In this document: piece by piece, positions 21,093 to 37,655 of the stretch
Layout of the letters: every line of letters begins with the position of its first letter
How positions within the stretch are numbered: the first letter of the stretch is position 1
Assembly: GCA_021209525.1 (NCBI GenBank)
Contig: JAJOIF010000004.1
Coordinates: 35,730 to 99,729 of the forward strand
Source: Minisyncoccota bacterium
GTDB lineage: Bacteria > Patescibacteriota > Minisyncoccia > Phycocordibacterales > UBA1006
Direction: 5' to 3'
Length of the DNA stretch: 64,000 bases
Position numbers and translations under genes: made by a program
The notes under the pieces: model-generated
Told to the model about the DNA's origin: nothing
Seen by the model: the letters and a program-made list of their open reading frames with translations, nothing else
The model's database searches: none

Positions 21093-21105
21093 ATTTATAC
21101 TATAA

Positions 21106-22209: not shown

Positions 22210-22213
22210 AATT

Positions 22214-23455: not shown

Positions 23456-24166
23456 CTAATCACGCGGTCCCGCTTTTGCGGGATTTTCGCTTTTTGGCTC
23501 GTAATTTCTTTTTCCTGTATAGAGTCGCCCAAAATCAAAATATTTATCTTTAATTTTATGCAGTTCTTCTGCGACTTGATTTCTCACTCCACAAATCCCA
23601 ATCTTTTTATTTTCAATTTTCAATCTTTGTAAAGGACCCTGCATATCAGAATCCCCAGAAAACAAAATAACTGCAGAAAACTTTTTTGCATCATCTAATA
23701 TGTCCATAGTCATCTCTACATCAAAATTACATTTTGGTTCTTCTATTAAAATACCTGGTTTATGTAATTCGTCTACAAGTTCTTCAATTTTACTTTTTAC
23801 ACCATCATCAAAAAGAGTCATAGTTTTACGCTGAAAAAACATTCCTTCTTTTATTGTCTTGGGAATATACTTCATTGGTTTTGTTTTTAGGATTGCACCA
23901 GTTTTTAAAATTCTTTTATGAAAAGCTTTTGAGTTTTTCAAATCTCTGGTATTTAAACCATAGTAAACTTTTATTTCTTGAATATTTTTATATGTTTTTA
24001 GTTGTTCTATCAAGTCTTCTATTCTAAATTTCCAACCCAAAACATCTTGCCAGTGGAACATATTTGTTAAATCCAAATACACAAAAACCACAGGCTCTTT
24101 TTCTAACCATTCTAGATAGTCTTCTCTTACCATAATTTTATTTTTAATATCCTGTGGTATTTCCAT
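23456..24166 (-). CDS. NYN-domain (LabA-like PIN-fold) nuclease
   Basis: VFVYLDLTNM... and AVILFSGDSDMQGPLQRLKIENKKIGICGV match the NYN/LabA fold. Confidence 0.65.
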   Translation of the reverse strand: MEIPQDIKNKIMVREDYLEWLEKEPVVFVYLDLTNMFHWQDVLGWKFRIEDLIEQLKTYKNIQEIKVYYGLNTRDLKNSKAFHKRILKTGAILKTKPMKYIPKTIKEGMFFQRKTMTLFDDGVKSKIEELVDELHKPGILIEEPKCNFDVEMTMDILDDAKKFSAVILFSGDSDMQGPLQRLKIENKKIGICGVRNQVAEELHKIKDKYFDFGRLYTGKRNYEPKSENPAKAGPRD

Positions 24167-24167
24167 A

Positions 24168-24272
24168 TTATTTTCTAAAATTAAATTTAAGTAAAATGCC
24201 CAACTTCACCCTTTTCCACTTTGCCTTGCGAGTTTTCTCCCCACTATTCTTTTGTGTCGTTTGTGTAGTCAT
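24168..24272 (-). pseudogene. Truncated duplicate of the hsdS 5' end (34 codons, MTTQTTQKNSGEKTRKAKWKRVKL... then stop) immediately upstream of the NYN gene
   Basis: Reverse complement of 24201-24272 encodes MTTQTTQKNSGEKTRKAKWKRV; the hsdS N-terminus is MNKTQTTQKNSGEKTRKAEWKRV. Its stop is 1 nt before the NYN ATG. Confidence 0.7.
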
Positions 24273-24273
24273 G
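24201..24273. repeat. 75-bp direct repeat, copy B
   Basis: caacttcacccttttccactttgccttgcgagttttctccccactattcttttgtgtcgtttgtgtagtcatg matches copy A. Confidence 0.8.
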
Positions 24274-24276
24274 TAT

Positions 24277-25746
24277 TTATAGTAATAACAAATAATCTAA
24301 AGGAATCTTCACTATACTATCCTCTGATAATTCTAAAGAATCACTACCAAAAACAATTCCATACTTTGCTCGACCTTTTGTTTTTTTCATAGTTGTTTGA
24401 ACTTGGTTTATTTCATTCTTTGAAAAACCAATTTCAAATACAATTTCTGTATTGTCTTTAAATCGAACAATAAAGTCCGCTCCGCCTGACCCATAATCAT
24501 AGTATGCGTCTACTTGTCCATAGAGTTCTTTTGAAAATAGTAAAGCCAAATAATCTTCAAGAATTTTTCCTTTTATATCAACACCTATTACACCACTCAA
24601 AAGACCTATTCTAATATTAGGACTCATAAAGAGGTATTTCCCACTTTTTTTTACTTGCTTATATGGTTGTCCGTATGCTTTTAATTCATAAAGAATTTCA
24701 GCATCAGTGAGAGCGGATAGAATTTTATTCAAAGTTAACGGAGCCAAATCTATTGTTTCCGATAGTTTTTTTATACTTATCTCATCACTATTTGCAAGAA
24801 GAAAAAGTACATTTGGGATTTTTACCAGAGTCTCTGCATTAAAGTCATTAAGCAAAATCAAATCTCTTTGCACAATATTAATCAGAATCATTGCTTTTAT
24901 TCTTTCAAGGGCTTCTGACTCGTTAATCATTTCAGCAGAAAATGGAAAAGAGCCTCTATAAAAATAGTCTTTCTTGAGATCGTTTAAATTTGTAATAGTA
25001 GAAAGTTTTTTAATAATTACTGATTGTAGTTGTTTTATTTTATCAAAAACTTCTTGAGCATTTTTGCTATGAAAAATTGCTCGAGCTAGATTTTTAGATA
25101 AATCTTTCTCTGGAAAGATATCTTTATGTAAAGTTAGATACTCACAAAACTTTGTAGGTAAAACCCTTTCTGTTTTTGACCTTCTCACCAAATCTTTGTT
25201 TTTTTGATTAAGGAAAATTGCAGAAGATCCTGTTGCAATAACAAGAATATTTTTGTTTCCTTTTGTTTTATCAAAAAGTAATTTTAAGAACAAATCCCAC
25301 TTTGGATCGTATTGAATTTCATCAATAAGTAAAAGAATTTTCTTTTTATTCTGCAATAAATTTCCCCAAACATTTTTTTCTAAATAATCAATGAATTCAC
25401 CCAAAGAAATATCTTCAGAAAGCAAACGGTCAACAGAAATATAAATCCTTTCATCTACCGTAGTGTTAATATCTTTAGATAAATGGTTTACTGGTTTATT
25501 TATTTCAAAAAAATATAATTGAGATAACAAGGTTGTTTTACCAACACCACGAATACCTGGTAGAATAATTATTTTTTCCTCTTCGGGTAATTCTCCTGAT
25601 ATAAGTTTATTTACATATTTTTGTAACATTAAATAAGAGGAACGAGTTTTTCTCTTTTTCCCTTCAGGTGTTTGAAAGTAGCTTTTTAGATATTGATCTA
25701 AATTTGACTTCCATTCGATATAGAATTTTTCAATATTTTTGTTCAT
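24277..25746 (-). CDS. AAA+ ATPase (archaeal-ATPase/AAA_14 + DUF4143-like) embedded in the type I R-M operon
   Basis: Walker A ILPGIRGVGKTTLLSQL, Walker B LLIDEIQY. Confidence 0.65.
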   Translation of the reverse strand: MNKNIEKFYIEWKSNLDQYLKSYFQTPEGKKRKTRSSYLMLQKYVNKLISGELPEEEKIIILPGIRGVGKTTLLSQLYFFEINKPVNHLSKDINTTVDERIYISVDRLLSEDISLGEFIDYLEKNVWGNLLQNKKKILLLIDEIQYDPKWDLFLKLLFDKTKGNKNILVIATGSSAIFLNQKNKDLVRRSKTERVLPTKFCEYLTLHKDIFPEKDLSKNLARAIFHSKNAQEVFDKIKQLQSVIIKKLSTITNLNDLKKDYFYRGSFPFSAEMINESEALERIKAMILINIVQRDLILLNDFNAETLVKIPNVLFLLANSDEISIKKLSETIDLAPLTLNKILSALTDAEILYELKAYGQPYKQVKKSGKYLFMSPNIRIGLLSGVIGVDIKGKILEDYLALLFSKELYGQVDAYYDYGSGGADFIVRFKDNTEIVFEIGFSKNEINQVQTTMKKTKGRAKYGIVFGSDSLELSEDSIVKIPLDYLLLL

Positions 25747-25979
25747 ATTACAATATAATCATATCACATTTCTGATTATATCCTAGTGTTTTCAAAAAGT
25801 AAATACCCTTTATATCCTTATTTTAAAGAGTTTTTAACACATTTCTGATATTGAGTTTTTGGCATTTCACTTTTTATATGATTTCGTATAAAAAGTGAAA
25901 TACCAAAAATGTGTATAATTATACATAAACTATACACATTTTATACATATTCTGATTTTGAATTGTAAAATAAGGCTTT

Positions 25980-27497
25980 TTACAGTATTTTCTTCAGATT
26001 TTCTTTGATTTTCTTTTCTAAAACCGCTGATTCTTTAAACAGATTCTCTAGGTCATTTGAAAGATTTTTGACTTTTTCTTGGAAATCCTCTTCTGATTCT
26101 TCTATTACTTCAGTACCCACATATCGCCCTGGGTTGAGCGAATATCCAGCTTCAGCAACTTCTTGCAATGTTGCAACCTTACACAGTCCTTTTACATCTT
26201 CGTATTTCCCTGCCCCGCTTTCGCCACGATACGCACGAACAATATTTGCAATTTGATCTATTTGCTCTGGAGTGAATTCTCTATGTGCTCGATCAATTTG
26301 TCGGTAAATATTTCTTGCATCAATAAAAAGAATTTTATCTTTTCTATTAGAATTTATTTTTCCTTTATCAAAAAACCAAAGTGTACAAGAAAGAGTTACG
26401 GTATAGAAAAAATTTCCACCAATCGCAACCATCACATCTACCACACCTGACTCGATCAACTTTTTTCTAATTTCAAGTTCTGTTCCTCGTGCGTCACTCG
26501 CAGAATTTGCCATAACAAATCCTGCGCGTCCGTTTTTGTTTAAGCTTTCATAAAAATGCTCAATCCACAGATAGTTTGCATTGTCCACTGTTGGAATACC
26601 AAGTCTATATCTTTTATCTTCTCGTACTTTTTCCTTGTCTACACCACTGACATTAAACGGAGGATTTGCCATGACAAAATCAAATTGCCCCACACTTTCA
26701 TGCAAATCTTCATAAAAAGTATTTCCTTGTTTTATTTGCCCTTCGAGTCCGTGTACTGCAAGGTTCATTTTACACAAATCGGCACTTATTTCTGATTTTT
26801 CTTGTCCATAAATTGAAATAATATTTTGAGTGCTGTTTTTGTGTTTTTTTACAAATTCCGCGCTCTGTACAAACATGCCACCTGATCCACATGCAGGGTC
26901 ATAGACTTTTCCTTGGTACGGTTCGAGGATTTCTACAATCAATTTTACAAGTGAAGTCGGAGTAAAGAACTCTCCTCCACCCTGACCTTCTGCCATAGCA
27001 AAACTTGAAAGGAAATATTCATAAATTTTTCCAAAAACATCACCTTCTACATCCATCGGGATTTCACTAAAAGTTTTAAGAAGTCCAATCAAAATATGAT
27101 TTTCAAGTTTGTTGTATGTTTTTGGTAATACGCTTTTGAGGTTGGGATTATATTCCTCAATTTCTTTCATCGCATCATTGATTGCTTTTCCTATATTTAC
27201 ACCTTCTTTAAGATTGAGTAAATATGAAAAGCGAGCGATTTCAGGAATATACATAATTCCTTTTGCTTGATATTCTTCAGGACCGATCTTTCTCTCGCGA
27301 ACCAGAGAAGCTCCTGTTTTTTTAGTATTCTTCAGTTCATTATCCGCGTGTTCAAATTTAAATTCAGCAAATCTCAAGAAAATAAGCCCTAGAACTGGTT
27401 GAGAATATTGATGAACGGTAAGACCAGAATTTGCTCGCAATGAGTTTGCAGCATCCCACAATCGCTCTTCTAATTTTTTAAGACTTTCTTTTGCCAT
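25980..27497 (-). CDS. hsdM: Type I restriction-modification N6-adenine DNA methyltransferase subunit
   Basis: 505 aa. HsdM N-terminal domain. Motif I region [10 protein letters not shown]. Motif [11 protein letters not shown]. Confidence 0.9.
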
Positions 27498-27506: not shown

Positions 27507-28181
27507 TTAAAGCATTTTTTCACTTTTTATACTAGTAAAACCTTTTGCTGTAATAACCAAATGATCTTGCACTTGTACGCCCAATAATTCCCCCGCCTTT
27601 ACGAGTCTTTTAGTTACTTCAACATCCTCTATCGAAGGTTCCAATGATCCAGAGGGGTGATTATGAGTAATAATAATACTCGAAGCATGTAATCGTAAAG
27701 CTGGTTCAAAAACTTCTCGTGGGTGCACTAAGGATGCGTCGAGAATTCCGACGGAAACAATGATTCGTTCAATTAATCGACTTTGTGTGTCTAAATAAAA
27801 AACCACTAGATGTTCTTTTTTGGAATCTTTAATGTCAGAACACAACAGCCAAACATCTTTTGGGGATAGTATTTCTACTTGATCATTTTGAGTAAAGCGT
27901 TTTCCTAATTCAATAACTGCAAGTATTTGTAATGATTTCACCTTACCTAATCCTTTAATATCTAAAAAATCATTCAAGGAAATATCTTGGACTCCTTTCT
28001 TTTGAATTACCCGGAGCGCTTTACGAGAAATTTCAAGCACATTAATCCCTTGAATTCCTGAGCTAAGCAAAATAGCAAGCAGCTCATAATCTTGCATTTT
28101 TCGTGTTCCATATTTTTCTAATTTTTCACGAGGTAAATATTTTTCATACATATTTAAATATATTAAAATAATCATGCTCAA
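27507..28181 (-). CDS. RadC-like JAB-domain protein (UPF0758)
   Basis: HhH-like N-terminus and JAMM motif HNHPSGSLEPSIEDVEVT. 10 nt upstream of hsdM. Confidence 0.8.
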   Translation of the reverse strand: MSMIILIYLNMYEKYLPREKLEKYGTRKMQDYELLAILLSSGIQGINVLEISRKALRVIQKKGVQDISLNDFLDIKGLGKVKSLQILAVIELGKRFTQNDQVEILSPKDVWLLCSDIKDSKKEHLVVFYLDTQSRLIERIIVSVGILDASLVHPREVFEPALRLHASSIIITHNHPSGSLEPSIEDVEVTKRLVKAGELLGVQVQDHLVITAKGFTSIKSEKML

Positions 28182-28255
28182 TAGCTTATTAAATATAATA
28201 TAATCTACTTCATATAAAAATAAAAACAGCCCCTTCCAGAACTGTTTCTTTACCC

Positions 28256-28648
28256 TTACTCTGCATACTCAACATCCCACAAGAATCCATTGCTGCCTTG
28301 TGGCCATATACGATCCTCAAAACTATTATTAATATCAAGGCATATCTTGCCGCGCATGTTATAGAGCAATACCTTGCCATGTGGTGTTGCAATACGCACA
28401 CCACGATGTGACTGCATGAAATCAAAGGGGCGCTCACCATTTTGCTGTTCCGGCTCTGTGGATATAATCATAATCTCATTCCCGGTACGCGGATCGGTGG
28501 TAATTTTGAAATGACCTTGATCATAATGGTGAACAATATCTATGATGATTTTTTCAAAGTCTTTTTGTAGGTAAAATTTTTCATCAACGGTGCGATCAAT
28601 AAAGATATGATCGAATCTTTTTTTGAATATTTCTATTATATTTTCCAT
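28256..28648 (-). CDS. Hypothetical protein (130 aa)
   Basis: Clean ORF with balanced composition; no recognisable motif. Confidence 0.4.
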   Translation of the reverse strand: MENIIEIFKKRFDHIFIDRTVDEKFYLQKDFEKIIIDIVHHYDQGHFKITTDPRTGNEIMIISTEPEQQNGERPFDFMQSHRGVRIATPHGKVLLYNMRGKICLDINNSFEDRIWPQGSNGFLWDVEYAE

Positions 28649-28736
28649 AGGTGCTTTTTTGTTTGTATGATACTCGTGTAAAAGTATGTGTCAATTGATG
28701 ACTATGATCAATTTTGAGATATTTTTATATCGCAGA

Positions 28737-28918
28737 TACGCGGGCTCGAGGGGCGGACCTCGTCAAACAGGGCAGGCTTCGCGGGTCCTTGGTTCGAGCC
28801 CCATCCGTCAACATAAATAAAAACACCAAAAGCTGTCGCTTGTGGTGTTAATATTTATGTGTTGGCGTCCTTGAGCCAGAACCGTGGTCAGTCAAGCCCT
28901 GCAAGGACATTTTTAGTT
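28737..28918 (+). ncRNA. Candidate structured RNA (~180 nt, GC-rich, unclassified)
   Basis: Sits in a 305-bp ORF-free gap. Stable hairpin CGAGG-GGCGGA-CCTCG. T-loop-like GGTTCGAGCCCC. Hairpin caccaaaagctgtcgcttgtggtg. Terminal stem GTCCTTG...CAAGGAC followed by ATTTTTAG. Confidence 0.3.
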
Positions 28919-28952
28919 TCTTTATCTTATCATTCCGACGGTCTTTGAGCAC

Positions 28953-29144
28953 CTATAAAATCACCTGGTTTCCGTCTTTATCTAGCACCACTCCTTTTGG
29001 CAGTTTATACCTATCTGGATTTTGTTTTCTATCCTGATCTAGTAGCCACTGAAAAACTGCTACCACTCTATCAGTTTCTTCCTTAGTCCAATTTTTAGGA
29101 TTTCTTTTATCTTCTTGATTCATAAAAAGTGACAAAAGTGACAC
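28953..29144 (-). CDS. Small hypothetical protein (63 aa), last gene of the NTase operon
   Basis: ORF 25 nt downstream of the TM effector gene. Confidence 0.3.
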   Translation of the reverse strand: MSLLSLFMNQEDKRNPKNWTKEETDRVVAVFQWLLDQDRKQNPDRYKLPKGVVLDKDGNQVIL

Positions 29145-29168
29145 AGTTTTGAGTATAAAAGTTACAAA

Positions 29169-29768
29169 TTACTGTAACTTTTTAACTTCAAAAGAGCCTG
29201 TATTATTACGATCTCTACCTGAGTAATATTCTGTTTGAAGCACTCCTTCATCTTCTAGCTTTGCAGATGCTGATCCCTCATGTATATGCATACTTTCAGG
29301 TGCATTATCTTTTGGTTTGTTTCTGTATTGATAATGTATTCTAGCCGTCCCGAATTCATCGACATTCATTGACGCTTCAAAACTGAAAGATTCTGATGTC
29401 TCTGTTTCCAGATAGATAAGTAGATGAGTCCATGTTTGTTTAATACAAAATTTCTTTATCTGTATTGGACCGTTGGCATGATTTGAATGAGATGTTATGG
29501 TTCCAGACCAATTTCCGTCTATGATAGGAGTTTTTATACTAGCAATTTTGCGAATAAAATTATTTCTCCACAAATTAGTTTCGAACCACTTATGTAAAAT
29601 TCCATAAAATCCAATTACCGAAGGAGCTTCTATCCACCACGGTAAGGGAAAGATGTTTTTTGAAAATAGATATAATCCCCATGCAAGCAATATCGATATT
29701 ACTGCAAGATAAAGCGACACATACTTGTGTTCTTCTGAGTTTATTGAATATGGATGTATGTTTTGCAT
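29169..29768 (-). CDS. Predicted membrane effector: two N-terminal TM helices + ~130-aa beta-rich C-terminal domain (Cap15-like architecture)
   Basis: TM1 YVSLYLAVISILLAWGLYLF. Second hydrophobic segment PLPWWIEAPSVIGFYGILHKW. Start is 3 nt after the NTase stop. Confidence 0.45.
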   Translation of the reverse strand: MQNIHPYSINSEEHKYVSLYLAVISILLAWGLYLFSKNIFPLPWWIEAPSVIGFYGILHKWFETNLWRNNFIRKIASIKTPIIDGNWSGTITSHSNHANGPIQIKKFCIKQTWTHLLIYLETETSESFSFEASMNVDEFGTARIHYQYRNKPKDNAPESMHIHEGSASAKLEDEGVLQTEYYSGRDRNNTGSFEVKKLQ

Positions 29769-29770
29769 AG

Positions 29771-30694
29771 TTATTTATTCCAATTATCCCAAAGTTCCAC
29801 AAAAGCACTAATAGTTTTTACTGCATCATCTTGGTTCCACTGCTCCTCACTTTCACCAAATAATTCATGAAAATGGTTTTGACACATACATTGACCAAGA
29901 GCTAATGCAGACCAGAGATGTTTTAATACTGCGTGTACGGTTGTAGAATGATCACCAGTAAAGTGCTCATCAGGGACATTGTAAATTAATGACTGTAAGA
30001 AATATGAAGGCGCTACACCATCGGTAAGTTTACCTGTATCAACAAGATGATTTCTCATATTTTTGAAAATTCGCACTGTTGGCTTAAAACGCCCGCCTGT
30101 ACGAGTATCTGAATTTTTATCAACTCCATTTTGATAGTGGTGCTCTGGATAATTTATGATTCCACGATTTGTTGTGCGATGATAGAATTTAACACCCTCT
30201 TCCGCATTATGACTATTAGTACCATAGAAATAATCATATTTTCGATAATTTATAACAGGAACAATGTCGGCCTTTAGTCTTCCTGAAGAAGGTTTGAGTT
30301 TAATTGACTTATTACCACTTGTATCAACGGAAAGTAATCCATAATATTTAGTCAGAGCAGAAATGACATCTCTGCGTAAATCTTGCCAATCATAAACAGC
30401 ACTACCATATGCCTGATCATGAGCATTTTTCTGATCATAAGGAAGTTCGTGTGCATTATGACCAAATGTAGTTGTTAACTCGACAACTACATCCACATCA
30501 CTATCTGCTCGAATATTTGTATCGTTTTTATATGATCCCTGGAGATAGATTTTTACCGAACCATTACTGATACGATCTTTAAGTGGTGACTGATCATGTG
30601 TCAGTGCTGTTCGAATAGATTCATGAGTTGCTTTTGCTGAAACAGTAGCACCTTGATTCGACCATGTTGTTAGTTGAGAGAGTGGAATTGCCAT
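29771..30694 (-). CDS. Pol-beta-superfamily nucleotidyltransferase of the SMODS/CD-NTase type (candidate CBASS cyclase)
   Basis: GS-x9-DSDVDVVVEL gives GS...DxD. A downstream LKADIVPV supplies the third acidic residue on a beta-strand (the 'DIVP' signature of cGAS/DncV-like enzymes). Confidence 0.6.
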   Translation of the reverse strand: MAIPLSQLTTWSNQGATVSAKATHESIRTALTHDQSPLKDRISNGSVKIYLQGSYKNDTNIRADSDVDVVVELTTTFGHNAHELPYDQKNAHDQAYGSAVYDWQDLRRDVISALTKYYGLLSVDTSGNKSIKLKPSSGRLKADIVPVINYRKYDYFYGTNSHNAEEGVKFYHRTTNRGIINYPEHHYQNGVDKNSDTRTGGRFKPTVRIFKNMRNHLVDTGKLTDGVAPSYFLQSLIYNVPDEHFTGDHSTTVHAVLKHLWSALALGQCMCQNHFHELFGESEEQWNQDDAVKTISAFVELWDNWNK

Positions 30695-30695
30695 A

Positions 30696-31607
30696 TCATT
30701 TAAATAGATTATCGATTTCAGCCGACCAATTATCGCTATGTATTATCCTATCTTTTTGATAGTTATTTTTAAGTATTTCTGCTTTGGTCATTTGAGAAAG
30801 CACCTCCCAATCAGTACCTAACACGTAAGTAGCATTACCATAATGCAAACTTTCAAGTAAATAAATACTTTTATCTTTATATCCAAACACAAGATACCCA
30901 GTAAAACCTCCCAACCCTATCGCTATTTGATCAGGCTTGTAAGATTCAATTTTTTTGAACCTGTCAGCTATCATTGCTTTTTCTCCAACAGATCTTTTTT
31001 CAATAATTTCTTTTACTCTTTCGTTAACCTTACTCCAGGGATTTATTCCAGGAGGTAGTAACTCCCAGTTGAGTCTAATAATTTTAGTTTTGACTGGTAG
31101 AGTCAAATTTTCTTTAAAAATCTGAAACTCATCAAATATTTCAAAAAACAAATTCATTGCATGCTTAATATCAGCATATTCACTTTTTACTTTTTTAAAT
31201 TTCTTTGAAATAACTATTTTCTTTGCATCATTTTCAGCAATTTGAAACTCCAAACTAGGAGGAGGGACTAGTTCTCTTTGCCATCTTTCATATGGCATGT
31301 AATTTACACCACTATGTTCATAGCCGCCCCAATCAGTTAATGTCCATTCTCTAGGATAATAAACTGTCTCTTTTGGTAGATCTTTTCTAGGATTTTCTTT
31401 ACCTTCTGCATTAAACTCTGAAACATTTCCAAATATCGCAGGAAGAACAGTCTCACCCACATTGAGATTATTAGAGAAACCTATCTTTTTAAGTAAATCA
31501 AATAAATTATCATTAATCTCAATACCGACATAAAAATTCTCATTCTCTTTTATTAAGGAGAGGTATTTTTCAGGATTAATTACTCTTTTGTGTCTTTTCT
31601 TTGCCAT
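30696..31607 (-). CDS. Hypothetical protein (303 aa), second gene of the repressor-NTase-effector operon
   Basis: Overlapping or abutting neighbours (4-nt and 1-nt gaps). No recognisable motifs. Confidence 0.45.
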   Translation of the reverse strand: MAKKRHKRVINPEKYLSLIKENENFYVGIEINDNLFDLLKKIGFSNNLNVGETVLPAIFGNVSEFNAEGKENPRKDLPKETVYYPREWTLTDWGGYEHSGVNYMPYERWQRELVPPPSLEFQIAENDAKKIVISKKFKKVKSEYADIKHAMNLFFEIFDEFQIFKENLTLPVKTKIIRLNWELLPPGINPWSKVNERVKEIIEKRSVGEKAMIADRFKKIESYKPDQIAIGLGGFTGYLVFGYKDKSIYLLESLHYGNATYVLGTDWEVLSQMTKAEILKNNYQKDRIIHSDNWSAEIDNLFK

Positions 31608-31610
31608 AAT

Positions 31611-32228
31611 TTAGTATAGATCACCAGGAAGTACAGCAACGACTACTCCTTGTATGATGCAGTTATCTGTTAATATAATCGGCTTATGGTCTTTGTTTGT
31701 TGATTTCGGTTGAAGTACAACAGCACCATTCGCTTTCTTGAACACCTTGACGGTTGCTTCGTCATTTATAAGGGCAACAACCTTTTCATTATCTTCCGCT
31801 GTATCCTGTTGTCGAATCAAAAGCAGATCTCCACTATTAATTCCTGCAAGATTCATCGAGTCACCCATAGCACGCAATAGAAAATATTTTGAACCCTTTT
31901 TAGCTAGCCCTGTTGATACAGGAATCATGGCTTGAATATTTTCTTCAGCTAGTACTGGTGAGCCACAAGTTACAGCACCAACCAAAGGAACATCAACTGT
32001 GCTTATTGAAGCTGTTGTCTGCGATCCAGTAAGGATAAGCTGTCGTCCGATTTTCTTTATTAGACCAGCCTCGATAAGTCGATTAACAACAAGGCTCGCA
32101 GATCGTGGAGATTTACCGCCTGTAACCTCATTAATCTCATCGAGAGTAGGGCTTTTGCCATAATGAACAATCTTGTTACGGATAAGGGCAAATGCTTTTT
32201 TGTCTTTGTCGCTAAGGTTATTTGTCAT
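31611..32228 (-). CDS. LexA/CI-like repressor (HTH + S24 autopeptidase)
   Basis: HTH PTLDEINEVTGGKSPRSASLVVNRL. Cleavage-site-like VGAVTCG. Ser/Lys dyad region GDSMNLAG...K. Start placed at MTNNLSDK; the upstream in-frame extension is palindromic operator DNA. Confidence 0.8.
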   Translation of the reverse strand: MTNNLSDKDKKAFALIRNKIVHYGKSPTLDEINEVTGGKSPRSASLVVNRLIEAGLIKKIGRQLILTGSQTTASISTVDVPLVGAVTCGSPVLAEENIQAMIPVSTGLAKKGSKYFLLRAMGDSMNLAGINSGDLLLIRQQDTAEDNEKVVALINDEATVKVFKKANGAVVLQPKSTNKDHKPIILTDNCIIQGVVVAVLPGDLY

Positions 32229-32286
32229 AGTATAAATAGTATAAATTATACTATACAAAAAAGCAAGTATTTGCTATGATATTCTT
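32229..32286. promoter_or_regulatory. Divergent promoter/operator region with palindromes
   Basis: TAGTATAAATTATACTA (32237-32253), direct repeat agtataaat x2, near-palindrome gcaagtatttgc. Confidence 0.4.
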
Positions 32287-32919
32287 ATGGAAAATGACCA
32301 GAAAAAACCAATGACTGTCGGTGAACTGGTAGCAAAGATACACTCTCCTGTTTTAAGCGAGGGGCAGATTTCTCAATTTCGAGAGATTGGTAAAAGACAT
32401 GCGGAAATGATTGAAAATATCAGAAAAGTTGCACAACCTATTATTGAACAAATGAATCGTGTTCGCGAACAAACAAAGCTTTTTGAACCAGTAGAATATC
32501 CAGCAATAGTATATCGTCGCCCCGTTGAATATGACATCCTGGAAGAACTACAAGAATTAAATAAAAACCACAAACGTCTTCTGTCTTCAAGCGAAGATAG
32601 TAATATAATCATCTACGACACAAGTAATGGGTCGCTCGACAGACATTTGGGTGGCAAACTATTTTCATACGATCTCACTGAAAATGGAAAAAGAAAGAAA
32701 TTACTTGAAACATTACTGAATCGAGATGCTTATGTACAAACAAAAGACTTACAAAGAATACTCTCTTGCCCATCATCGCAGGCAGTAGCAAAAATAGTTC
32801 AAACTTTTAATGACTATGCGATAAACACACTAAGACTACCAAAGAAGACAAAACTCATTCAAGGAAAGAAAGGTTCTGGATATCGTATTAATCCTAAAAT
32901 ACACATAGAGAAAGAGTAA
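32287..32919 (+). CDS. Hypothetical protein (210 aa), divergent from the repressor. Possible Cro/antirepressor-position regulator
   Basis: Position divergent from the CI-like gene. C-terminal basic region. Confidence 0.4.
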   Translation: MENDQKKPMTVGELVAKIHSPVLSEGQISQFREIGKRHAEMIENIRKVAQPIIEQMNRVREQTKLFEPVEYPAIVYRRPVEYDILEELQELNKNHKRLLSSSEDSNIIIYDTSNGSLDRHLGGKLFSYDLTENGKRKKLLETLLNRDAYVQTKDLQRILSCPSSQAVAKIVQTFNDYAINTLRLPKKTKLIQGKKGSGYRINPKIHIEKE

Positions 32920-33093
32920 ATTCCTAAGTTGACACCAAGTTGAGTGGATAACTTTGAAAAATCGCCTTTAAATAGGCGTTTTTTCTTTATGTTACTCAAT
33001 TTTGTGGTGATTACATGACTATGTACCTTTTTGATTTCATAGAGTTAGTAGATTAGTCATCTACAAATTTATAAGTAATTAAATAAAAACTCT

Positions 33094-34371
33094 ATGAATA
33101 AAAAACCTTCATGGAAAACAGGAGTTAGAGAAGTCAAAGATTTACTCCCTTGGAAAGAAAATCCAAGAAAAATCTCACGGGTCGCTATGGAAAAATTAAA
33201 AGAGAAAATCATTCAAAGTGGTTTTCATAGTGTAATTGTTATTGATACAGACAATACGATTATTTCAGGTAATCAAAGAAAAACTGCTTTGATACAGCTC
33301 GGTATTAAACAAGTAAATGTACTGATTCCTGATCGTAAATTGTCTGACGAAGAACGTCGCAAGATTGCGATCGAAAGCAATGTCAACGACGGTGAGTGGG
33401 ATTTCGAAAAGCTTAAGTCTTTTGACCTTGAGCTTTTACAGTTCGCTGGATTCAACGAAAAAGAATTAGTTAAGTTTTGGGACGAAGAAAAGGATACCAA
33501 AGATGACAAATTCGATGTCGATAAAGAGTTAAAGAAAATAAAAACACCGCAAACAAAGCCGGGTGATCTTATCATCATGGGTGGTCATAAGTTGCTATGT
33601 GCTAGCTCAACCGACATGAATGCTGTCACTAAGCTATTCGGAAATGATAAAGCCACGGCTATCTATAATGATCCACCTTTTAATATCGGGCTTTCATACG
33701 ACAAAGGTGTTGGTAATAAATCTAACTACGGAGGTACGTTTGACGACAATCAATCACCTGAAGAATATAAAGAATTTATTCGCAAGGTTCTAAAATCTTC
33801 ACTAACCGTATCTACCAAAGATGTACACGTCGCTTTCTGGTGTGATGAAGCCTGGGTGTGGGTTTTTCAAACGCTCTATATGGAAAATGGAGTTAAGAAC
33901 CGAAGACTTAATGTCTGGGTTAAAAACAATTCATCACCGACACCAACTGTTGCGTTCAATAAGTGTCTTGAGTATTGCGTGTATGGCACAAAAGGATCTC
34001 CATATATTTCAGATCTCGTAAAAAATCTCAACGAAGTACAAAACAAAGACTATGGAACTGGTAACCAACTTCTTGAAGACATCTCAAATATCTGGGCAAC
34101 AAAACGACTACCTTCAAATCAAATGGAACATGCGACGAGTAAAAATCCTGAATTACACCATAAGTTTATTATGCGTTGCACTAAGCCAGGAGACATCATT
34201 TTTGATGCCTTCTCTGGATCTGCTAGCACCATGATCTGTGCAGAACAACTGGGTCGAAAGGTCTATTCCCTAGAGATAGAGCCTGTGTTTTGCGATTTGG
34301 CGATTCGTCGTTATGAAAAATTAACTGGTCATAAGGCACAAGTAATTAAGAACTTCTATGAAAAAGAATAA
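33094..34371 (+). CDS. ParB-like nuclease domain fused to an N6-adenine/N4-cytosine DNA methyltransferase (phage-type orphan MTase)
   Basis: N-terminal ParB/Srx motif region. C-terminal IYNDPPFNIG (DPPF motif IV) and FDAFSGSAST (motif I). Confidence 0.8.
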   Translation: MNKKPSWKTGVREVKDLLPWKENPRKISRVAMEKLKEKIIQSGFHSVIVIDTDNTIISGNQRKTALIQLGIKQVNVLIPDRKLSDEERRKIAIESNVNDGEWDFEKLKSFDLELLQFAGFNEKELVKFWDEEKDTKDDKFDVDKELKKIKTPQTKPGDLIIMGGHKLLCASSTDMNAVTKLFGNDKATAIYNDPPFNIGLSYDKGVGNKSNYGGTFDDNQSPEEYKEFIRKVLKSSLTVSTKDVHVAFWCDEAWVWVFQTLYMENGVKNRRLNVWVKNNSSPTPTVAFNKCLEYCVYGTKGSPYISDLVKNLNEVQNKDYGTGNQLLEDISNIWATKRLPSNQMEHATSKNPELHHKFIMRCTKPGDIIFDAFSGSASTMICAEQLGRKVYSLEIEPVFCDLAIRRYEKLTGHKAQVIKNFYEKE

Positions 34372-34765
34372 ATTTCAAGATCAGTTTCTTGATGAGCTAC
34401 GGAAAGTGCCAATCATTCAGGTTGCTTGCGAGAAATCAGGACTATCTCGTCAAAGTGTCTATCGGTGGAGAAAGGAAGATAAAGAATTTCTCAAGAAAAT
34501 GGATAGTGCACTTTCTGAAGGTGTCGCCTTGGTAAATGACATGAGTGAAAGTCAATTACTTACGCTCATCAAAGAGAAAAACTATCCTGCAATTAGTTTT
34601 TGGCTCCGTCACCGAAATGATAATTACAAAAACAAGCTTGAGATTACTACTAAAGATGATAACGAGGAACTAACACCGTCACAAGCGAAAATTGTAAAGC
34701 AGGCGCTCAAACTCGCAAAAATTACTAAGTCGAAATCTATTAAAAATATTAATCGTAAAAAATAA
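34358..34765 (+). CDS. Phage terminase small subunit-like HTH protein
   Basis: HTH VACEKSGLSRQSVYRWRKE. Sits immediately upstream of the terminase large subunit. Confidence 0.5.
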   Translation: MKKNKFQDQFLDELRKVPIIQVACEKSGLSRQSVYRWRKEDKEFLKKMDSALSEGVALVNDMSESQLLTLIKEKNYPAISFWLRHRNDNYKNKLEITTKDDNEELTPSQAKIVKQALKLAKITKSKSIKNINRKK

Positions 34766-34767
34766 TT

Positions 34768-36264
34768 ATGACTAAAATAATTCCCAAAGCACTGGTGAAT
34801 ACGATGATAAAAGATCGTTCAGTGCGAACATCAATTACCAAGGATAGTTTTCTGTATTTCTTCCATTTTTACTATGCACACTATGTAAAGTATGAGACAG
34901 CAGATTTTCAAAAAGAGATTATTCATAATCTCGAAAAAAGTACCACAGAAAATCTGTATGTAGTAGCATTTCGTGGATCAGGAAAATCGACCATGGTTAC
35001 AACAGCATACCCAATTTGGGCAATCCTCGGAAAACAACAAAAGAAGTTTTGTATTATCTTTTGTCAGACACGAGCACAAGCAAAGCAACATATGATGAAT
35101 ATCCGTACTGAACTTGAGGGTAATGACGTTCTTAAAAAAGACCTTGGACCTTTTCAAGAAGAAAGTGACGAATGGGGCTCATTCTCTCTTGTATTCAAAA
35201 AGCACGGAGCAAGAATTACTGTAGCTTCTGCCGAGCAAAGTATTCGTGGAATTCGTCATAATGAACACCGTCCTGATCTCATCATCTGCGATGACGTTGA
35301 AGATGTTCAATCTACTAAAACTCGTGAGGGTCGAGAAAAGACATATAACTGGCTCCGTGGCGAGGTTGTACCTGCTGGCGATAGAAATACACGCTTAATC
35401 ATAGTCGGAAACTTACTCCACGAAGATTCGTTGTTAATGCGTATTAAAGACGAAATTGCAAAAGGTAAGGCGAAAGGAATTTTCAAAGAGTATCCGTTGA
35501 TTGATAAGAATGGTGTTTGTTTATGGTCTGGGAAATATGCAACAGAAAGAGATCTTGAGGATGAGAAGTTAAAAGTTGCCAGTGAAATATCGTGGCAACG
35601 AGAATATTTACTCCGTATTATTCCAAGCGATGATCAAGTTATCTATCCAGAATGGATTCAGTTTTATGACGAACTGCCAGGAGAAAAACATCGTGGCTAT
35701 CGTGGTACCTATGCAGGAGTAGATCTTGCGATTTCAGCTTCAGAAACAGCTGATGACACAGCTGTGGTATTTGCCCACATTTATTCACGCCGTGAGAAAT
35801 TACGAATTTATATACTACCTAACCCTATTGCAAAGAAACTTAACTTTCCTGCACAGGTGGATCTTATGAAAGATATTCGCAACACTTTGCTCACAAGAAG
35901 CTCTGACGAGTTGTTTGTTGAGAGTGTTGCATATCAAGAAGCCCTACCACAAATGCTTGAACATCATGGTGTTAAGGCTACAGCAATAAAACCTAAGGGT
36001 GACAAAAGAACACGACTTGCTCTTACTTCAACTGCAATAAAATCAGCAAAAATTTTATTCCCAAGACAAGGGTGTGAAAGACTTATCGAGCAACTTGTTG
36101 GATTTGGAGTAGAAAAGCATGACGACTTAGCGGATGCATTTTCTCTCTTAATTAACTCAACTATGGATAAACATTCAGGAGAATCTACATGGCTTATGTA
36201 CTGGATGGGAGATGATGAACCTTTGTATTTTAGGGATTATGTAGATATGGGTCAAAAAAAGTAG
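34768..36264 (+). CDS. Phage terminase large subunit
   Basis: Walker A FRGSGKST, Walker B LIICDDVED, and a C-terminal RNase-H-like nuclease region. Confidence 0.8.
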   Translation: MTKIIPKALVNTMIKDRSVRTSITKDSFLYFFHFYYAHYVKYETADFQKEIIHNLEKSTTENLYVVAFRGSGKSTMVTTAYPIWAILGKQQKKFCIIFCQTRAQAKQHMMNIRTELEGNDVLKKDLGPFQEESDEWGSFSLVFKKHGARITVASAEQSIRGIRHNEHRPDLIICDDVEDVQSTKTREGREKTYNWLRGEVVPAGDRNTRLIIVGNLLHEDSLLMRIKDEIAKGKAKGIFKEYPLIDKNGVCLWSGKYATERDLEDEKLKVASEISWQREYLLRIIPSDDQVIYPEWIQFYDELPGEKHRGYRGTYAGVDLAISASETADDTAVVFAHIYSRREKLRIYILPNPIAKKLNFPAQVDLMKDIRNTLLTRSSDELFVESVAYQEALPQMLEHHGVKATAIKPKGDKRTRLALTSTAIKSAKILFPRQGCERLIEQLVGFGVEKHDDLADAFSLLINSTMDKHSGESTWLMYWMGDDEPLYFRDYVDMGQKK

Positions 36265-36359
36265 TCGCGAGTATGCAATATTTCGCTAGTTCTGCATAGA
36301 CTTAGCAAAACGCTCAAATTGCGTCATCAATATAATATGGAGACGCAATATATAAGTAA

Positions 36360-37655
36360 TTTAGGGGTAAGGACAGAAGTACCAAAACCAAGATTCGGTA
36401 TGTCCTGTATGCTCGAAAATCAACCGAATCAGACGAAAAGCAAGCCTTATCTATTGAATCACAGGTTAAGGAAATGCTTGCCATAGCCGACCGTGACGGC
36501 TTAACAGTTGTTGATATTAGGCGTGAATCTCATTCAGCTAAAGAATCCGGTCAACGACCAGTATTTAGAGAGGTATTAGAGGATGTAAGACGTGGTAGAT
36601 ATAACGGAATACTCACATGGGCACCAGATCGTCTATCAAGAAACGCTGGCGACCTAGGATCAGTGGTTGACCTTATGGACGAGACAAAACTTCTTGAAAT
36701 AAGAACATATGGACAGCATTTTAAAAATTCTCCCAATGAGAAGTTTCTTTTGATGATCCTGTGTTCCCAAGCAAAGCTCGAAAACGATAACAAAAGTATA
36801 AATGTAAAACGAGGACTGCGAACAAGGTGTGAAATGGGATTGCGACCTGGACCTGCTGTAGTCGGATATCTTAATGAAAAGAGAATGGATAAAAAGTGCG
36901 AAGTGGTTATAGATCCTGAACGAGCACCGATAGTTAAACAAATGTTTGAAAAAGTAGCTTATGAAAAATGGTCAGGAAGAAAGCTCTATCACTGGCTTAA
37001 GTTTGATCTTAATTTCAAAACTCGTAGTGGCAACAAAGGTCTTACCCTTAGCAATATTTATCTCATACTTCAAAATCCATTCTATTATGGAGTTTTTGAG
37101 TATCCACGAAAAAGTGGAAATTTCTATACTGGAAGACACAAGCCAATAATCAATAAGGAGCTTTTTGAATTAGTCCAAGAGCAGGTAAAAAGCCAAGTTT
37201 TAAGGACCCAAGAACCAAAAGAGTTTGCTTTTACAAAAATGATGACTTGCGGGCTTTGTGGCTCAGGAATATGTGCTGATGAAAAGTTTAAAAAGTTAAA
37301 AGATGGGTCAGTAAACAGGCATATCTATTATGGATGTACTAGATCTAAAGATAAAAATTGTAAGTGTGGGTATATAAACGAGATTGAATTAATACAGCAA
37401 TTTGAAAAGTTGATTGATCAAGTAAATATCAACGAGATTGGGATGAAAGAGAAAATCAAATATGAAGTTGAGCGAATAAAACGCTTTAATCAATCTGTAT
37501 TAAATACAAAACAGCAGATACAAATAAAAGACGTAGACATCAGAGACTACGCCAAATTTATTTTGAAAGACGGTTTGATTGAGGAGAAACGAGAATTACT
37601 AACTTGTTTTAAGAGTAAGATTTTCCTAAAAGAGAAAAGAATTTTCCTCGACTAG
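36360..37655 (+). CDS. Large serine recombinase (resolvase/invertase catalytic domain + recombinase and zinc-ribbon regions); start codon unresolved
   Basis: Catalytic motif IRYVLYARKSTESDEKQALSIESQ is in frame upstream of the first ATG (36474). No ATG, GTG or TTG lies in frame between the TAA at 36357 and the Ser codon. Confidence 0.75.
   Translation, partial: FRGKDRSTKTKIRYVLYARKSTESDEKQALSIESQVKEMLAIADRDGLTVVDIRRESHSAKESGQRPVFREVLEDVRRGRYNGILTWAPDRLSRNAGDLGSVVDLMDETKLLEIRTYGQHFKNSPNEKFLLMILCSQAKLENDNKSINVKRGLRTRCEMGLRPGPAVVGYLNEKRMDKKCEVVIDPERAPIVKQMFEKVAYEKWSGRKLYHWLKFDLNFKTRSGNKGLTLSNIYLILQNPFYYGVFEYPRKSGNFYTGRHKPIINKELFELVQEQVKSQVLRTQEPKEFAFTKMMTCGLCGSGICADEKFKKLKDGSVNRHIYYGCTRSKDKNCKCGYINEIELIQQFEKLIDQVNINEIGMKEKIKYEVERIKRFNQSVLNTKQQIQIKDVDIRDYAKFILKDGLIEEKRELLTCFKSKIFLKEKRIFLD

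Follow-up and report, generated by a model that had tools for sequence, protein, structure and literature searches.

A LexA-type autopeptidase repressor heads a CBASS operon in a compact, probably satellite-like element of Patescibacteria

Introduction

The locus described here raises the question of how a CBASS immune operon comes to be headed by a single LexA-type repressor, and whether that repressor belongs to the immune system or to the element that carries it. Damage-responsive regulators beside bacterial immune operons are known. CapH and CapP, an XRE-HTH repressor and an ssDNA-activated M78 metallopeptidase, control CBASS and other immune operons (Lau et al. 2022, bioRxiv 10.1101/2022.04.27.489752), and a paper of June 2026 names only CapW/BrxR, CapH+CapP, and CapK+CapS as regulators of this kind (PMC13373217). 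A literature search on CBASS together with LexA and S24 found no paper. The LexA-type gene at the head of this operon, together with sister elements in which the same repressor heads other defence systems or gives way to CapH/CapP, suggests a further DNA-damage switch of bacterial immunity, a fourth kind that has so far gone undescribed. The locus lies in a stretch of 64,000 nucleotides (64 kb), hereafter the window, an earlier account of which was made from its letters alone (the sequence-only reading).

The operon and its genes

Five genes run head-to-tail on the minus strand of the window, listed here from the first to the last:

31611-32228, minus strand: LexA-type repressor, winged-HTH and S24 autopeptidase (profiles; alignment with E. 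coli LexA)
30696-31607, minus strand: U303, 303 aa, optional slot gene between the repressor and CBASS (ORF; comparison with sister elements)
29771-30694, minus strand: clade-E (CdnE-like) CD-NTase, 307 aa, the cyclic-nucleotide synthase of CBASS (PADLOC and PDB matches)
29169-29768, minus strand: Cap15 effector, 199 aa, two transmembrane helices and a beta-barrel cyclic-dinucleotide receptor domain (Pfam, PADLOC, PDB)
28953-29144, minus strand: 63-aa ORF (s63), last gene of the cargo arm (ORF call)

All ORFs of the sequence-only reading, the 63-aa ORF included, are present at these coordinates, and the single tight operon headed by a LexA-type HTH+S24 protein that it had proposed is borne out. 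By ORF coordinates, the intergenic gaps from the repressor to s63 are 3, 1, 2, and 24 nt, and two of the junctions can be read directly from the letters (TAA-ATT-ATG for repressor/U303 and TGA-T-ATG for U303/CD-NTase). A scan of the operon for internal promoters and terminators gave none that was convincing, with matches at the level of shuffled sequence. Two other contigs (L005 and L013) have the same gene order and match the element from end to end with 90-93% nucleotide identity; a short contig (L096) shares it at 97% in the part it covers, from U303 to s63. Because it recurs in these three, the arrangement is not due to chance.

The CD-NTase matches the PADLOC oligonucleotide cyclase model PDLC00788 over its full length (9.6e-107), its top PDB sequence match is Rm-CdnE (6e0k, 3.4e-65), and the motifs GSYKND, DSDVD, and KADIVP can be read in it in that order. 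The effector is matched by Cap15_CD_rec (1.8e-27) and Cap15_TM (1e-07) in Pfam, by the PADLOC 2TM effector model (8.7e-57), and by the PDB entry of Cap15 (7n34, 2.9e-09). The earlier assignment of a SMODS/CD-NTase with a Cap15-like effector is thereby confirmed, and the HMM checks proposed with it (SMODS, CD-NTase, Cap15, and Peptidase_S24) recovered the CBASS cyclase, Cap15, and S24, with Pfam SMODS alone falling below threshold (22.9, gathering score 26.5). Ancillary Cap2/Cap3, HORMA/TRIP13, or Cap6-8 genes were not found in the operon, and the repressor, U303, and s63 match no PADLOC model. Judged by gene content, the CD-NTase and Cap15 are a predicted type I CBASS. Like known systems with CdnE and Cap15 (7n34), it combines a CD-NTase with GS/DxD/D motifs and a 2TM-beta-barrel effector and has no ancillary genes; the core pair is ordinary, and the differences lie upstream (the LexA-type gene and U303) and downstream (s63).

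The reading frame of the repressor extends upstream as far as a TTG at 32258 (31611-32258, 215 aa), and the ATG at 32228, giving 205 aa, is the more likely start. The protein matches Pfam Peptidase_S24 (1.2e-27) and, over its full length, the NCBIfam model TIGR00498 lexA (133.9 bits, curated cut-off 110.95), while Pfam LexA_DNA_bind alone scores just below its cut-off (21.6, cut-off 23.7). Residues 5-196 of E. coli LexA align with it, so that Ser124 (in GDSM) and Lys161 (in VKVFKK) stand opposite LexA S119 and K156, and the linker VTCGSP stands opposite VAAGEP. Cys88-Gly89, Ser124, and Lys161 are invariant across 23 relatives. The repressor thus belongs to the S24 autopeptidases, keeps both the cleavage site and the Ser/Lys dyad, and is predicted to cleave itself. 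It shares with LexA, lambda CI, and SetR-type S24 repressors the winged-HTH and S24 domains, the Ser/Lys dyad, the cleavage site in the linker, and a place in the divergent control region of an integrated element; the palindrome at its own promoter is a candidate operator of the kind known from these repressors. In contrast to LexA, its predicted scissile bond is Cys-Gly and not Ala-Gly; Cys-Gly is also the scissile bond of UmuD. The 64-kb window holds no second LexA gene and no recA.

The divergent control region

Between the repressor start codon (32228-32226) and the ATG of a rightward gene for a 210-aa protein (32287) lie about 58 nt:

32227-32286, no strand: divergent promoter and candidate operator region (half-sites, palindrome, conserved promoter core)

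Three ATAGTATAA half-sites are found here, at 32227-32235, at 32236-32244, and inverted at 32246-32254, the latter two forming a perfect 19-bp palindrome (32236-32254) that occurs once in the 64-kb window. A leftward promoter-like sequence, TTGCTT-17-TATACT-9-ATG, is kept in 8 of 9 lineages of the element. Its TATA and TTATACT cores do not vary, whereas the remainder of the intergenic region diverges among them; its -35 (TTGCTT) agrees with 3 of 6 consensus positions and lies under the threshold of the scan tool. The first hexamer of a rightward promoter-like sequence, TATACA-17-TATGAT, overlaps the palindrome. Because the repeats that resemble an operator overlap both the -10 and the start site of the repressor gene, negative autoregulation, and hence induction on cleavage, would be expected. 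Because the palindrome is degenerate in close relatives (in L005, for instance, GAGTAA replaces GTATAA in the left half-site), the true operator half-sites are uncertain, and the conserved block could stem from the promoter alone. Orthologous LexA-U303 loci of other phyla each have a palindrome of their own at the same place.

The element

The operon is one arm of a compact integrative element of about 8.8 kb (about 28860-37655), whose further parts are as follows:

28860-28952, no strand: left end of the element (homology stops at 28860-28865 in four independent copies, L005, L013, L096, and L102)
32287-32919, plus strand: 210-aa protein, first gene of the backbone arm (ORF; conserved in L005, L013, L097-L099, L115, and L119)
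33094-34371, plus strand: ParB-N-like protein with N6/N4 DNA methyltransferase (N6_N4_Mtase, 1.6e-28)
34358-34765, plus strand: small terminase subunit, TerS (phrog_4044, 1.8e-09)
34768-36264, plus strand: large terminase subunit, TerL (phrog_38, 4.6e-78)
36337-37655, plus strand: large serine recombinase, right end of the element, frameshifted (Resolvase, Recombinase, and Zn_ribbon_recom domains)

On the right, homology to sister copies stops at about 37615-37631, and in some sister elements unrelated small genes replace the 210-aa gene. The recombinase is frameshifted near codon 17, with two parts of the L005 orthologue, residues 1-20 and residues 17-438, matching in different frames, and induction of the element may therefore be defective in the window copy. 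No capsid, tail, or conjugation genes and no recognisable replication module were found within the 8.8 kb, and IMG/VR yielded a single close copy. With a serine recombinase, a repressor, TerS, and TerL but no virion structural genes, the content is satellite-like, and the element is probably an integrative, satellite-like, and presumably mobile element of a Patescibacteria (CPR) host. Its backbone (serine recombinase, TerL, TerS, ParB-methylase, and LexA-type repressor) is not known to match any of the four satellite families described so far. The operon, which the sequence-only reading had assigned to the edge of a prophage remnant, is instead one arm of this conserved element, and in sister loci the element is flanked by host genes on either side.

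Sister elements and their cargo

Repressors that are 76-96% identical occupy the same backbone in many Patescibacteria contigs. The operons behind them carry CBASS (three kinds), a TIR system, or a PADLOC candidate. The backbone and LexA-type gene are combined with CBASS in the window, L005, and L013, in L097-L099, and in L102, L115, and L117; a third, CBASS-like cargo (L123) carries a SMODS/AGS-C nucleotidyltransferase and no recognised effector. In other copies, the cargo is TIR with 8xMP (L119), PDC-M48B (L113 and L122), or U303 with Pycsar and PD-T4-3 (L089), the repressor that heads Pycsar being more distant (phmmer 1e-58). CBASS operons behind a repressor of this subfamily occur in at least four diverged lineages of the element. 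Six of six LexA-anchored context samples (five random look-ups and one IMG/VR match, repressors 76-96% identical) lie in an element of this type, past which host genes follow; the context sample as a whole is small and partly CD-NTase-anchored.

U303 is exactly replaced by DUF2188 in L097-L099 and L102, elements that are about 90% identical, and the slot holds DUF2188, DUF3892, or nothing in sister elements with the same repressor and CBASS. U303 is a swappable insert and not a CBASS component. Its family is large (at least 413 homologues; 2,101 cluster representatives) and, as far as found, unnamed in Pfam, PHROGs, NCBIfam, and PADLOC, none of which gave a match.

In one sister element, CapH and CapP (PADLOC 3.5e-11 and 2e-07) sit where the LexA-type gene would be, upstream of the same CBASS (CD-NTase 75% identical) and in the same methylase/TerS backbone. 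The PADLOC capH and capP models match the pair in L101 and not the window repressor; they gave no hit at the present locus, and an XRE-HTH (HTH_3) or Peptidase_M78 gene is absent in or beside the operon. The window switch is for this reason not CapH/CapP, and the repressor may work like that module but is no member of it. The two arrangements are alike in a repressor inactivated by proteolysis, here a predicted step, beside CBASS, with a DNA-damage response expected. They differ in that a single protein here unites DNA binding with an S24 serine autopeptidase, with no metallopeptidase, and in that the trigger would be the RecA filament, whereas CapP binds ssDNA directly. Moreover, the CapH/CapP genes are usually on the strand opposite to the operon (bioRxiv 10.1101/2022.04.27.489752), whereas the LexA-type gene is co-directional with the cargo as the first gene of the operon. 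The proposed alternative to the CapH/CapP damage switch is supported by this comparison, by the lineages with LexA-headed CBASS as well as by CapH+CapP in the repressor's place. Of the broader claim of a distinct LexA/CI-like S24 switch coupled to CBASS, the operon and the protein family hold; that the repressor is dedicated to CBASS does not, as it stands at the divergent promoter of a compact mobile element and heads Pycsar, TIR, or PDC-M48B cargo in sister elements. A prophage CI transcribed separately had been named as the observation that would speak against the claim, and the repressor is probably the element's CI equivalent, with no sign of separate transcription.

Defence hotspots are known from prophages and phage satellites, including those of P2/P4 and the cargo of PICI (Rousset et al. 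2022, PMC9122126; de Sousa et al. 2023, PMC10085698). The present family resembles them in a fixed slot of a small element that holds different defence systems in closely related copies, and it resembles lambda cI-rexAB in defence genes co-transcribed with a maintenance repressor. Unlike in those hotspots, the slot lies directly behind a repressor of the self-cleaving type, in a probable CPR host, and unlike LexA, CI, and SetR, this repressor heads swappable anti-phage cargo in an element without capsid, tail, or conjugation genes.

Proposed mechanism and alternative explanations

The best overall explanation, which we consider somewhat probable, is that the CBASS is the cargo arm of a satellite-like element whose LexA-type damage switch derepresses both arms. 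The two arms would diverge from the one control region, where the repressor would sit on the GTATA/TATAC palindrome, covering its own -10 and start (a leaderless promoter is probable) as well as the opposite -35, and hold both arms low. With the repressor encoded at the head of its own operon, negative autoregulation would let a trickle of U303, CdnE, and Cap15 through. DNA damage or phage replication would give rise to RecA-ssDNA filaments that stimulate S24 self-cleavage at Cys88-Gly89 by the Ser124/Lys161 dyad, whereupon CBASS would be boosted and the methylase, terminase, and recombinase genes turned on. On sensing a phage, CdnE would make a cyclic dinucleotide, which Cap15 would bind to disrupt the membrane and abort the infection. 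RecA dependence, induction, and phage protection are what we infer from this arrangement, in which one LexA-type protein would fill the role that CapH+CapP, CapW, or CapK+CapS have elsewhere.

The same genes could also be explained by lysogenic conversion, with the LexA-type protein serving as maintenance repressor only and CBASS riding on its transcript as a moron steadily expressed in cells that carry the element, damage induction being irrelevant or even harmful to defence. The repressor does stand where two arms of a mobile element diverge, in a control region reminiscent of CI/Cro, the cargo behind it varies freely as in prophage and satellite defence hotspots (PMC9122126), and co-transcription would guarantee basal expression. 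We nevertheless regard this as rather unlikely, as the repeats on the repressor's own -10 and start predict negative autoregulation, and as CapH/CapP, a demonstrated damage-induced CBASS switch, takes the same position in a sister element (bioRxiv 10.1101/2022.04.27.489752). The two models have much in common, and what separates them is mostly a matter of emphasis. Co-transcription with an autoregulated repressor would also fit an arrangement of the lambda cI-rexAB type, so that induction of the defence genes by damage may be no more than a by-product. It is very improbable that the repressor is the host's ordinary housekeeping LexA, with CBASS and the terminase and recombinase genes inserted on either side by chance. 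The score above the curated LexA equivalog cut-off, relatives in CPR genomes annotated "transcriptional repressor LexA", and the lack of a second LexA in the window would agree with it, but the block of homology to independent contigs extends beyond the gene in both directions, stopping at the recombinase on one side and after the cargo on the other, all six LexA-anchored samples show the same backbone surrounded by host genes, and the palindrome is found nowhere else in the 64 kb.

U303 would, in a further alternative, be an obligatory partner, either as a signal-sensing trigger of repressor cleavage or as a CBASS ancillary protein priming the CD-NTase. Its position 3 nt past the repressor and 1 nt ahead of the CD-NTase, the co-directional LexA-U303 pairs also found in Omnitrophota and Saccharibacteria, and an S24 repressor or M78 peptidase within four genes in 23 of 84 U303 loci would favour such a role. 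Yet the roughly 90% identical elements do without U303, it stands alone on small plasmids or beside unrelated genes elsewhere, and no fusions were recognised and no fold match was found, although the structure model is confident; we judge the role very improbable. That the element is a decaying relic with an unexpressed or non-functional operon is suggested by the recombinase frameshift, which could be an assembly error. The remaining listed ORFs of the element are intact, the catalytic residues are preserved, and copies of 90-97% identity in several metagenomes keep those cargo frames that could be checked, which makes this explanation extremely doubtful.

Accessory genes around the core

DUF2188 or DUF3892 genes follow both kinds of switch, the LexA-type and CapH/CapP. 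DUF2188 (the PADLOC candidate PDC-S16) accompanies U303 in 15 of 84 loci, and in L001 U303 occurs with DUF3892 and DUF2188 behind an M78/HTH pair. Operons of "DUF2188 + hypothetical protein" and of DUF3892 behind CapH/CapP-like regulators were noted by Lau et al. 2022 (bioRxiv 10.1101/2022.04.27.489752); in a like manner, U303, DUF2188, and DUF3892 use the same slot in the present family. A joint reading, speculative and on the whole unlikely, would see LexA-type S24 autopeptidases as a fourth, single-protein kind of "controllers of adjacent pathways" in abortive-infection immunity, wired to the RecA filament in place of direct ssDNA sensing and spread through CPR by an undescribed minimal satellite-like family, with U303, DUF2188, and DUF3892 as a guild acting on the switch. 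If this were true, the cargo slot would rotate among CBASS, Pycsar, TIR, and other systems, and the guild members would be, for example, anti-repressors, cleavage modulators, or feedback brakes and not independent effectors.

At the other end of the operon, homologues of s63 lie 3' of Cap15 in L005, L013, L096, L097, and L102. L117 has one in this place as well, and its CD-NTase is only a distant relative.

A CBASS operon headed by a LexA-type repressor

CBASS and other abortive-infection systems kill the cell, and the restraint of their expression is therefore an active question. The operon described here is real and of greater interest than a typical CBASS locus. Its parts are of known kinds: a type I CBASS, a repressor of the LexA type, and a defence hotspot on a small mobile element. 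What is new is an immune operon headed by a single LexA-type protein of the self-cleaving kind, the natural exchange of this repressor with the CapH/CapP pair, the CPR element family that carries the repressor, and a slot directly behind the repressor that holds U303, DUF2188, or DUF3892 genes.

The five minus-strand ORFs of the sequence-only reading lie head-to-tail exactly where it placed them: the repressor, U303 (303 aa), a CD-NTase, Cap15, and s63 (a 63-aa ORF), separated by 3, 1, 2, and 24 nt. When read directly, the junction of the repressor and U303 genes is TAA-ATT-ATG and that of the U303 and CD-NTase genes is TGA-T-ATG. In a promoter and terminator scan covering 28000-33200, matches were at shuffle level, and a single transcript is not provable from that scan alone. 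Two of the genes are located as follows:

29771-30694, minus strand: CD-NTase
28953-29144, minus strand: s63

The proposed combination of a SMODS/CD-NTase with a 2TM Cap15-like effector is borne out by Pfam, PADLOC, and PDB matches. The CD-NTase matches the PADLOC oligonucleotide-cyclase model over its full length (9.6e-107), carries the GS, DSDVD, and KADIVP motifs, and has CdnE enzymes as its closest solved structures (top Rm-CdnE 6e0k, 3.4e-65). Cap15 is recognized by Cap15_CD_rec (1.8e-27), Cap15_TM (1e-07), the PADLOC 2TM effector model (8.7e-57), and PDB 7n34. Since the operon contains no Cap2/3 or HORMA-type gene, it is assigned to type I CBASS. The CD-NTase also matches NCBIfam NF053871 (DS2_2_antiphage, anti-phage nucleotidyltransferase) over its full length with 297 bits, which is below the 350-bit cut-off. 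A 53-aa homologue of s63 (phmmer 1.4e-22) lies behind Cap15 in the sister element L117 (2636-2797), which keeps it despite an only distantly related CD-NTase (4.5e-18); s63 may be a small CBASS-linked protein.

The repressor and its control region

The first gene matches Peptidase_S24 (1.2e-27) and, over its full length, the NCBIfam LexA equivalog (133.9 bits; curated cut-off 110.95), in agreement with the earlier description of a LexA-like HTH and S24 autopeptidase. The alignment covers residues 5 to 196 of E. coli LexA. VGAVTCGSP of the repressor lies opposite VGRVAAGEP of LexA, which puts a Cys-Gly bond at the position of Ala84-Gly85; the scissile bond of UmuD is also Cys-Gly. Furthermore, GDSM aligns with GMSM (Ser119 in LexA) and VKVFKK with VKRLKK (Lys156), and all 23 aligned relatives keep Cys88, Gly89, Ser124, and Lys161. 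The start is likely the ATG at 32228: the genes called on sister contigs encode 205 aa, and operator repeats make up the ten additional codons of the TTG-started ORF.

About 58 nt separate the repressor start codon from the ATG (32287) of the divergent 210-aa gene. This spacer contains ATAGTATAA three times, and a pair of these copies forms a perfect 19-bp palindrome (32236-32254) that occurs once in the 64-kb window. Towards the repressor, the promoter-like sequence TTGCTT-17-TATACT-9-ATG has its -10 hexamer covered by the palindrome and its start by the third half-site; with this spacing, the predicted transcript would be nearly leaderless. On the opposite strand, the promoter-like TATACA-17-TATGAT ends 6 nt ahead of the divergent ATG, and its TATACA hexamer falls within the palindrome. 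Taken together, this points to one putative operator region that would shut both promoters, with a negatively autoregulated repressor.

An alignment of the element from nine lineages keeps the promoter core, with TATA and TTATACT invariant, and the remaining spacer has diverged. Perfect palindromes of their own lie at the equivalent position in the orthologous loci of Omnitrophota (L004) and Saccharibacteria (L089), and in L004 a TTGACA-17-TACAAT sequence ends 7 nt ahead of the ATG. In close relatives the left half-site of the palindrome is degenerate, and in the window the -35 hexamer of the repressor promoter is weak.

A conserved ~8.8-kb element

To the right of the operon are the 210-aa gene and genes for a ParB-N/N6_N4 methyltransferase, TerS, TerL, and a large serine recombinase. 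BLASTN against independent contigs returned one homology block, from ~28860-28865 to ~37615-37631, that is 90-93% identical in L005 and L013, has its left end in common in four contigs, and is bordered on either side by host genes in sister loci. The operon is therefore part of a conserved ~8.8-kb element and not, as had been read from the sequence, at the edge of a prophage remnant. No capsid or tail genes are found within the element, which by gene content resembles a minimal phage satellite. Its closest genome copy is L013, from a Candidatus Paceibacterota metagenome-assembled genome, and the window is accordingly of probable CPR origin. Neither of the two tRNA sites in the window, which are four genes (Cys, Leu, Lys, Leu) at 196-660 (plus strand) and tRNA-Gln at 43388-43459 (minus strand), adjoins the element ends. 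A search for recA with an E. coli RecA query gave no match, a result that bears only on the 64 kb of the window.

A frameshift near codon 17 splits the recombinase gene (36337-37655, plus strand): the L005 orthologue matches in two different frames, with its residues 1-20 in one and 17-438 in the other, which leaves the catalytic YARKST motif without a start codon. Either the gene is truly inactivated, and the copy hence immobilized, or the assembly is in error.

The element adjoins a defence island. There, a minus-strand type I restriction-modification operon (18078-27497) has three other genes between its subunits.

Genes of the restriction-modification operon and the gene that follows hsdM
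18078-21092, minus strand: hsdR
21106-22209, minus strand: Shedu SduA_C gene, embedded among hsd subunits
22214-23383, minus strand: hsdS
23456-24166, minus strand: NYN-domain gene, embedded among hsd subunits
24277-25746, minus strand: AAA_14/DUF4143 ATPase, embedded among hsd subunits
25980-27497, minus strand: hsdM
27507-28181: RadC, after hsdM

Just beyond the element, a 130-aa ORF without a family match (28256-28648, in 28222-28694, minus strand) has the region's best sigma-70-like promoter (TTGACA-16-TATCAT, 11/12) and a 12-pair terminator-like hairpin at its 3' side.

Defence cargo behind related repressors

At E<=1e-20 the repressor has 1,652 homologues, and over 100 of these share 75-96% identity with it. 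These close relatives are each ~205 aa long, and every source name among them that identifies an organism points to Patescibacteria. Six LexA-anchored contexts were sampled (five random look-ups and one from an IMG/VR scan), and all six have the same element backbone. An IMG/VR search with the CD-NTase gave no match, and one with the LexA profile gave a single close locus.

Cargo behind the repressor in sister elements (repressor identity to the window in brackets)
L115 (76%): CD-NTase and Cap15 directly behind
L117 (76%): DUF3892, distantly related CD-NTase, Cap15, s63-like ORF
L123 (78%): DUF3892, membrane protein, SMODS/AGS-C nucleotidyltransferase, 190-aa protein
L113 and L122 (80% and 79%): PADLOC candidate PDC-M48B (2e-68) and two unknown proteins
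L119 (96%): two ThsB-like TIR proteins and 8xMP membrane protein

This varied cargo indicates that the repressor heads a slot that rotates among defence systems, with CBASS-type cargo being the most common (three of the six lineages). The TIR pair and octameric 8xMP protein of L119 (7001-8949) are possibly a TIR-plus-membrane-effector system. In L089 from Saccharibacteria, the TerL/TerS/methylase backbone is the same but the repressor is less closely related (phmmer E=1e-58); the order at 5345-9424 is LexA-type repressor, U303, Pycsar (PycTM 1e-25, PycC 1e-57), and PD-T4-3, so that U303 precedes another cyclic-nucleotide defence system there. Little is known about the immunity and mobile elements of Patescibacteria, and a compact element family, apparently in this group, shuttles diverse defence systems.

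In another locus (L103), a 621-aa fusion (1213-3078, minus strand) joins a complete LexA (LexA_DNA_bind and Peptidase_S24) to a type II N6/N4 DNA methyltransferase (PADLOC MTase_II 2e-137). Its neighbours are genes for an MvaI/BcnI endonuclease and a C-protein, and a CD-NTase (3188-4090) and Cap15 pair runs divergently from it. The fusion could be a restriction-modification methylase with a self-cleaving regulatory domain.

Exchange with CapH/CapP and proposed mechanism

The sister elements L100 and L101 encode CD-NTases that are 75% identical to that of the window, with Cap15 present in L100 and a methylase/TerS backbone of 66% nucleotide identity in L101. Where the window has its LexA-type gene, L100 and L101 each encode an XRE-HTH protein and an HExxH peptidase, a pair that is matched by the PADLOC capH (3.5e-11) and capP (2e-07) models. 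CapH/CapP is an experimentally characterized DNA-damage switch for CBASS (bioRxiv 10.1101/2022.04.27.489752). A paper of June 2026 gives only CapW/BrxR, CapH+CapP, and CapK+CapS as such regulators (PMC13373217), and a literature search joining CBASS, LexA, and S24 found no paper. A self-cleaving LexA-type repressor in this role would be a fourth family, one that couples the expression of immune operons directly to the classical RecA/SOS signal.

In the resting cell, a repressor dimer on the palindrome would keep both arms low, and with autoregulation basal amounts of repressor, U303, CdnE, and Cap15 would still be made. ssDNA from DNA damage or phage replication would be loaded with RecA, and the filament would stimulate S24 self-cleavage at Cys88-Gly89. 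Both promoters would then open, raising the CBASS level and expressing the methylase, terminase, and recombinase arm. Upon sensing a phage, CdnE would make a cyclic dinucleotide that is bound by Cap15, which would permeabilize the membrane. The steps from repression to derepression are derived from the locus anatomy and established knowledge of LexA, CI, and SetR, and the CdnE/Cap15 step follows from family membership. As a whole, we regard this mechanism as moderately probable.

The chief alternative follows the lambda cI-rexAB pattern, where damage would induce the defence genes only incidentally; it overlaps with the proposed mechanism. The strongest computational argument for the LexA-type protein acting in the CapH/CapP role is the non-orthologous replacement of one by the other, which also provides a ready-made experimental comparison. 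A housekeeping LexA was considered because many close relatives, over 100 of them at 75-81% identity, are annotated LexA; it is rejected, every sampled relative lying within the element backbone. The CapK/CapS system, which pairs a GHKL kinase with a STAS-wHTH protein, is likewise rejected for the repressor/U303 pair.

U303 and the slot behind the repressor

U303 has no match in Pfam, PHROGs, NCBIfam, or PADLOC, and no fold relative was detected. The family is well conserved (28 invariant columns among 48 sequences) and large, with at least 413 homologues and, at 50% identity, 2,101 cluster representatives that are all ~300 aa and stand-alone. Members are found across numerous bacterial phyla, in a single archaeal metagenome-assembled genome, and on plasmids. 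Among 80 U303-anchored genome loci, CD-NTase and Cap15 accompany it only in a copy of the same element. Compared with the window, L097-L099 (CD-NTase 96-97% identical) and L102 (68%) lose homology at 31597 and regain it at 30695. These positions are the limits of the U303 ORF, whose place is taken by a 74-76-aa DUF2188 protein (Pfam 3.8e-19; PADLOC candidate PDC-S16, 1.3e-27). This exact replacement and the restricted association place U303 outside CBASS.

Families within four genes of U303 (84 loci)
DUF2188: 15, of which 13 directly downstream
S24 LexA-like repressor: 12
M78 peptidase: 11
XRE-HTH: 10
Serine recombinase: 8

Two loci that adjoin a serine recombinase have a CapP/CapH-like M78 peptidase/HTH pair facing DUF3892, DUF2188, and U303 in a row (L001, 4482-6918) or DUF2188 and U303 (L007, 2616-4932). 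Behind CapH/CapP-like regulators, Lau et al. had noted DUF3892 operons as well as 'DUF2188 + hypothetical protein' operons (bioRxiv 10.1101/2022.04.27.489752). From the slot replacement and the U303 neighbourhoods, U303, DUF2188, and DUF3892 behave as interchangeable front-slot genes behind damage-type switches. U303 is a large unannotated family that tracks damage-responsive switches across many phyla. The predictions for DUF2188 and DUF3892 reportedly originate from Burroughs and Aravind (2020). That the two share one position is an independent observation, which narrows the search for their function. An independent, co-induced function of U303 is favoured over an obligatory regulatory role because it also occurs alone on small plasmids; U303 may nevertheless modulate the switch.

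Stand-alone U303 genes annotated 'hypothetical protein' are found after a very large DEAD/DEAH helicase on Lactococcus cremoris SK11 plasmid 5 (L093), beside a BrnT/BrnA toxin-antitoxin pair on an 8.6-kb plasmid of Acinetobacter johnsonii (L094), and between Fic and MobQ on a Priestia flexa plasmid (L095). A further defence-type neighbourhood is L011 (4365-9489), in which a UvrD-like helicase lies upstream of a U303 homologue that has a ThiF/E1-like gene on one side and HNH and SIR2_2 genes on the other.
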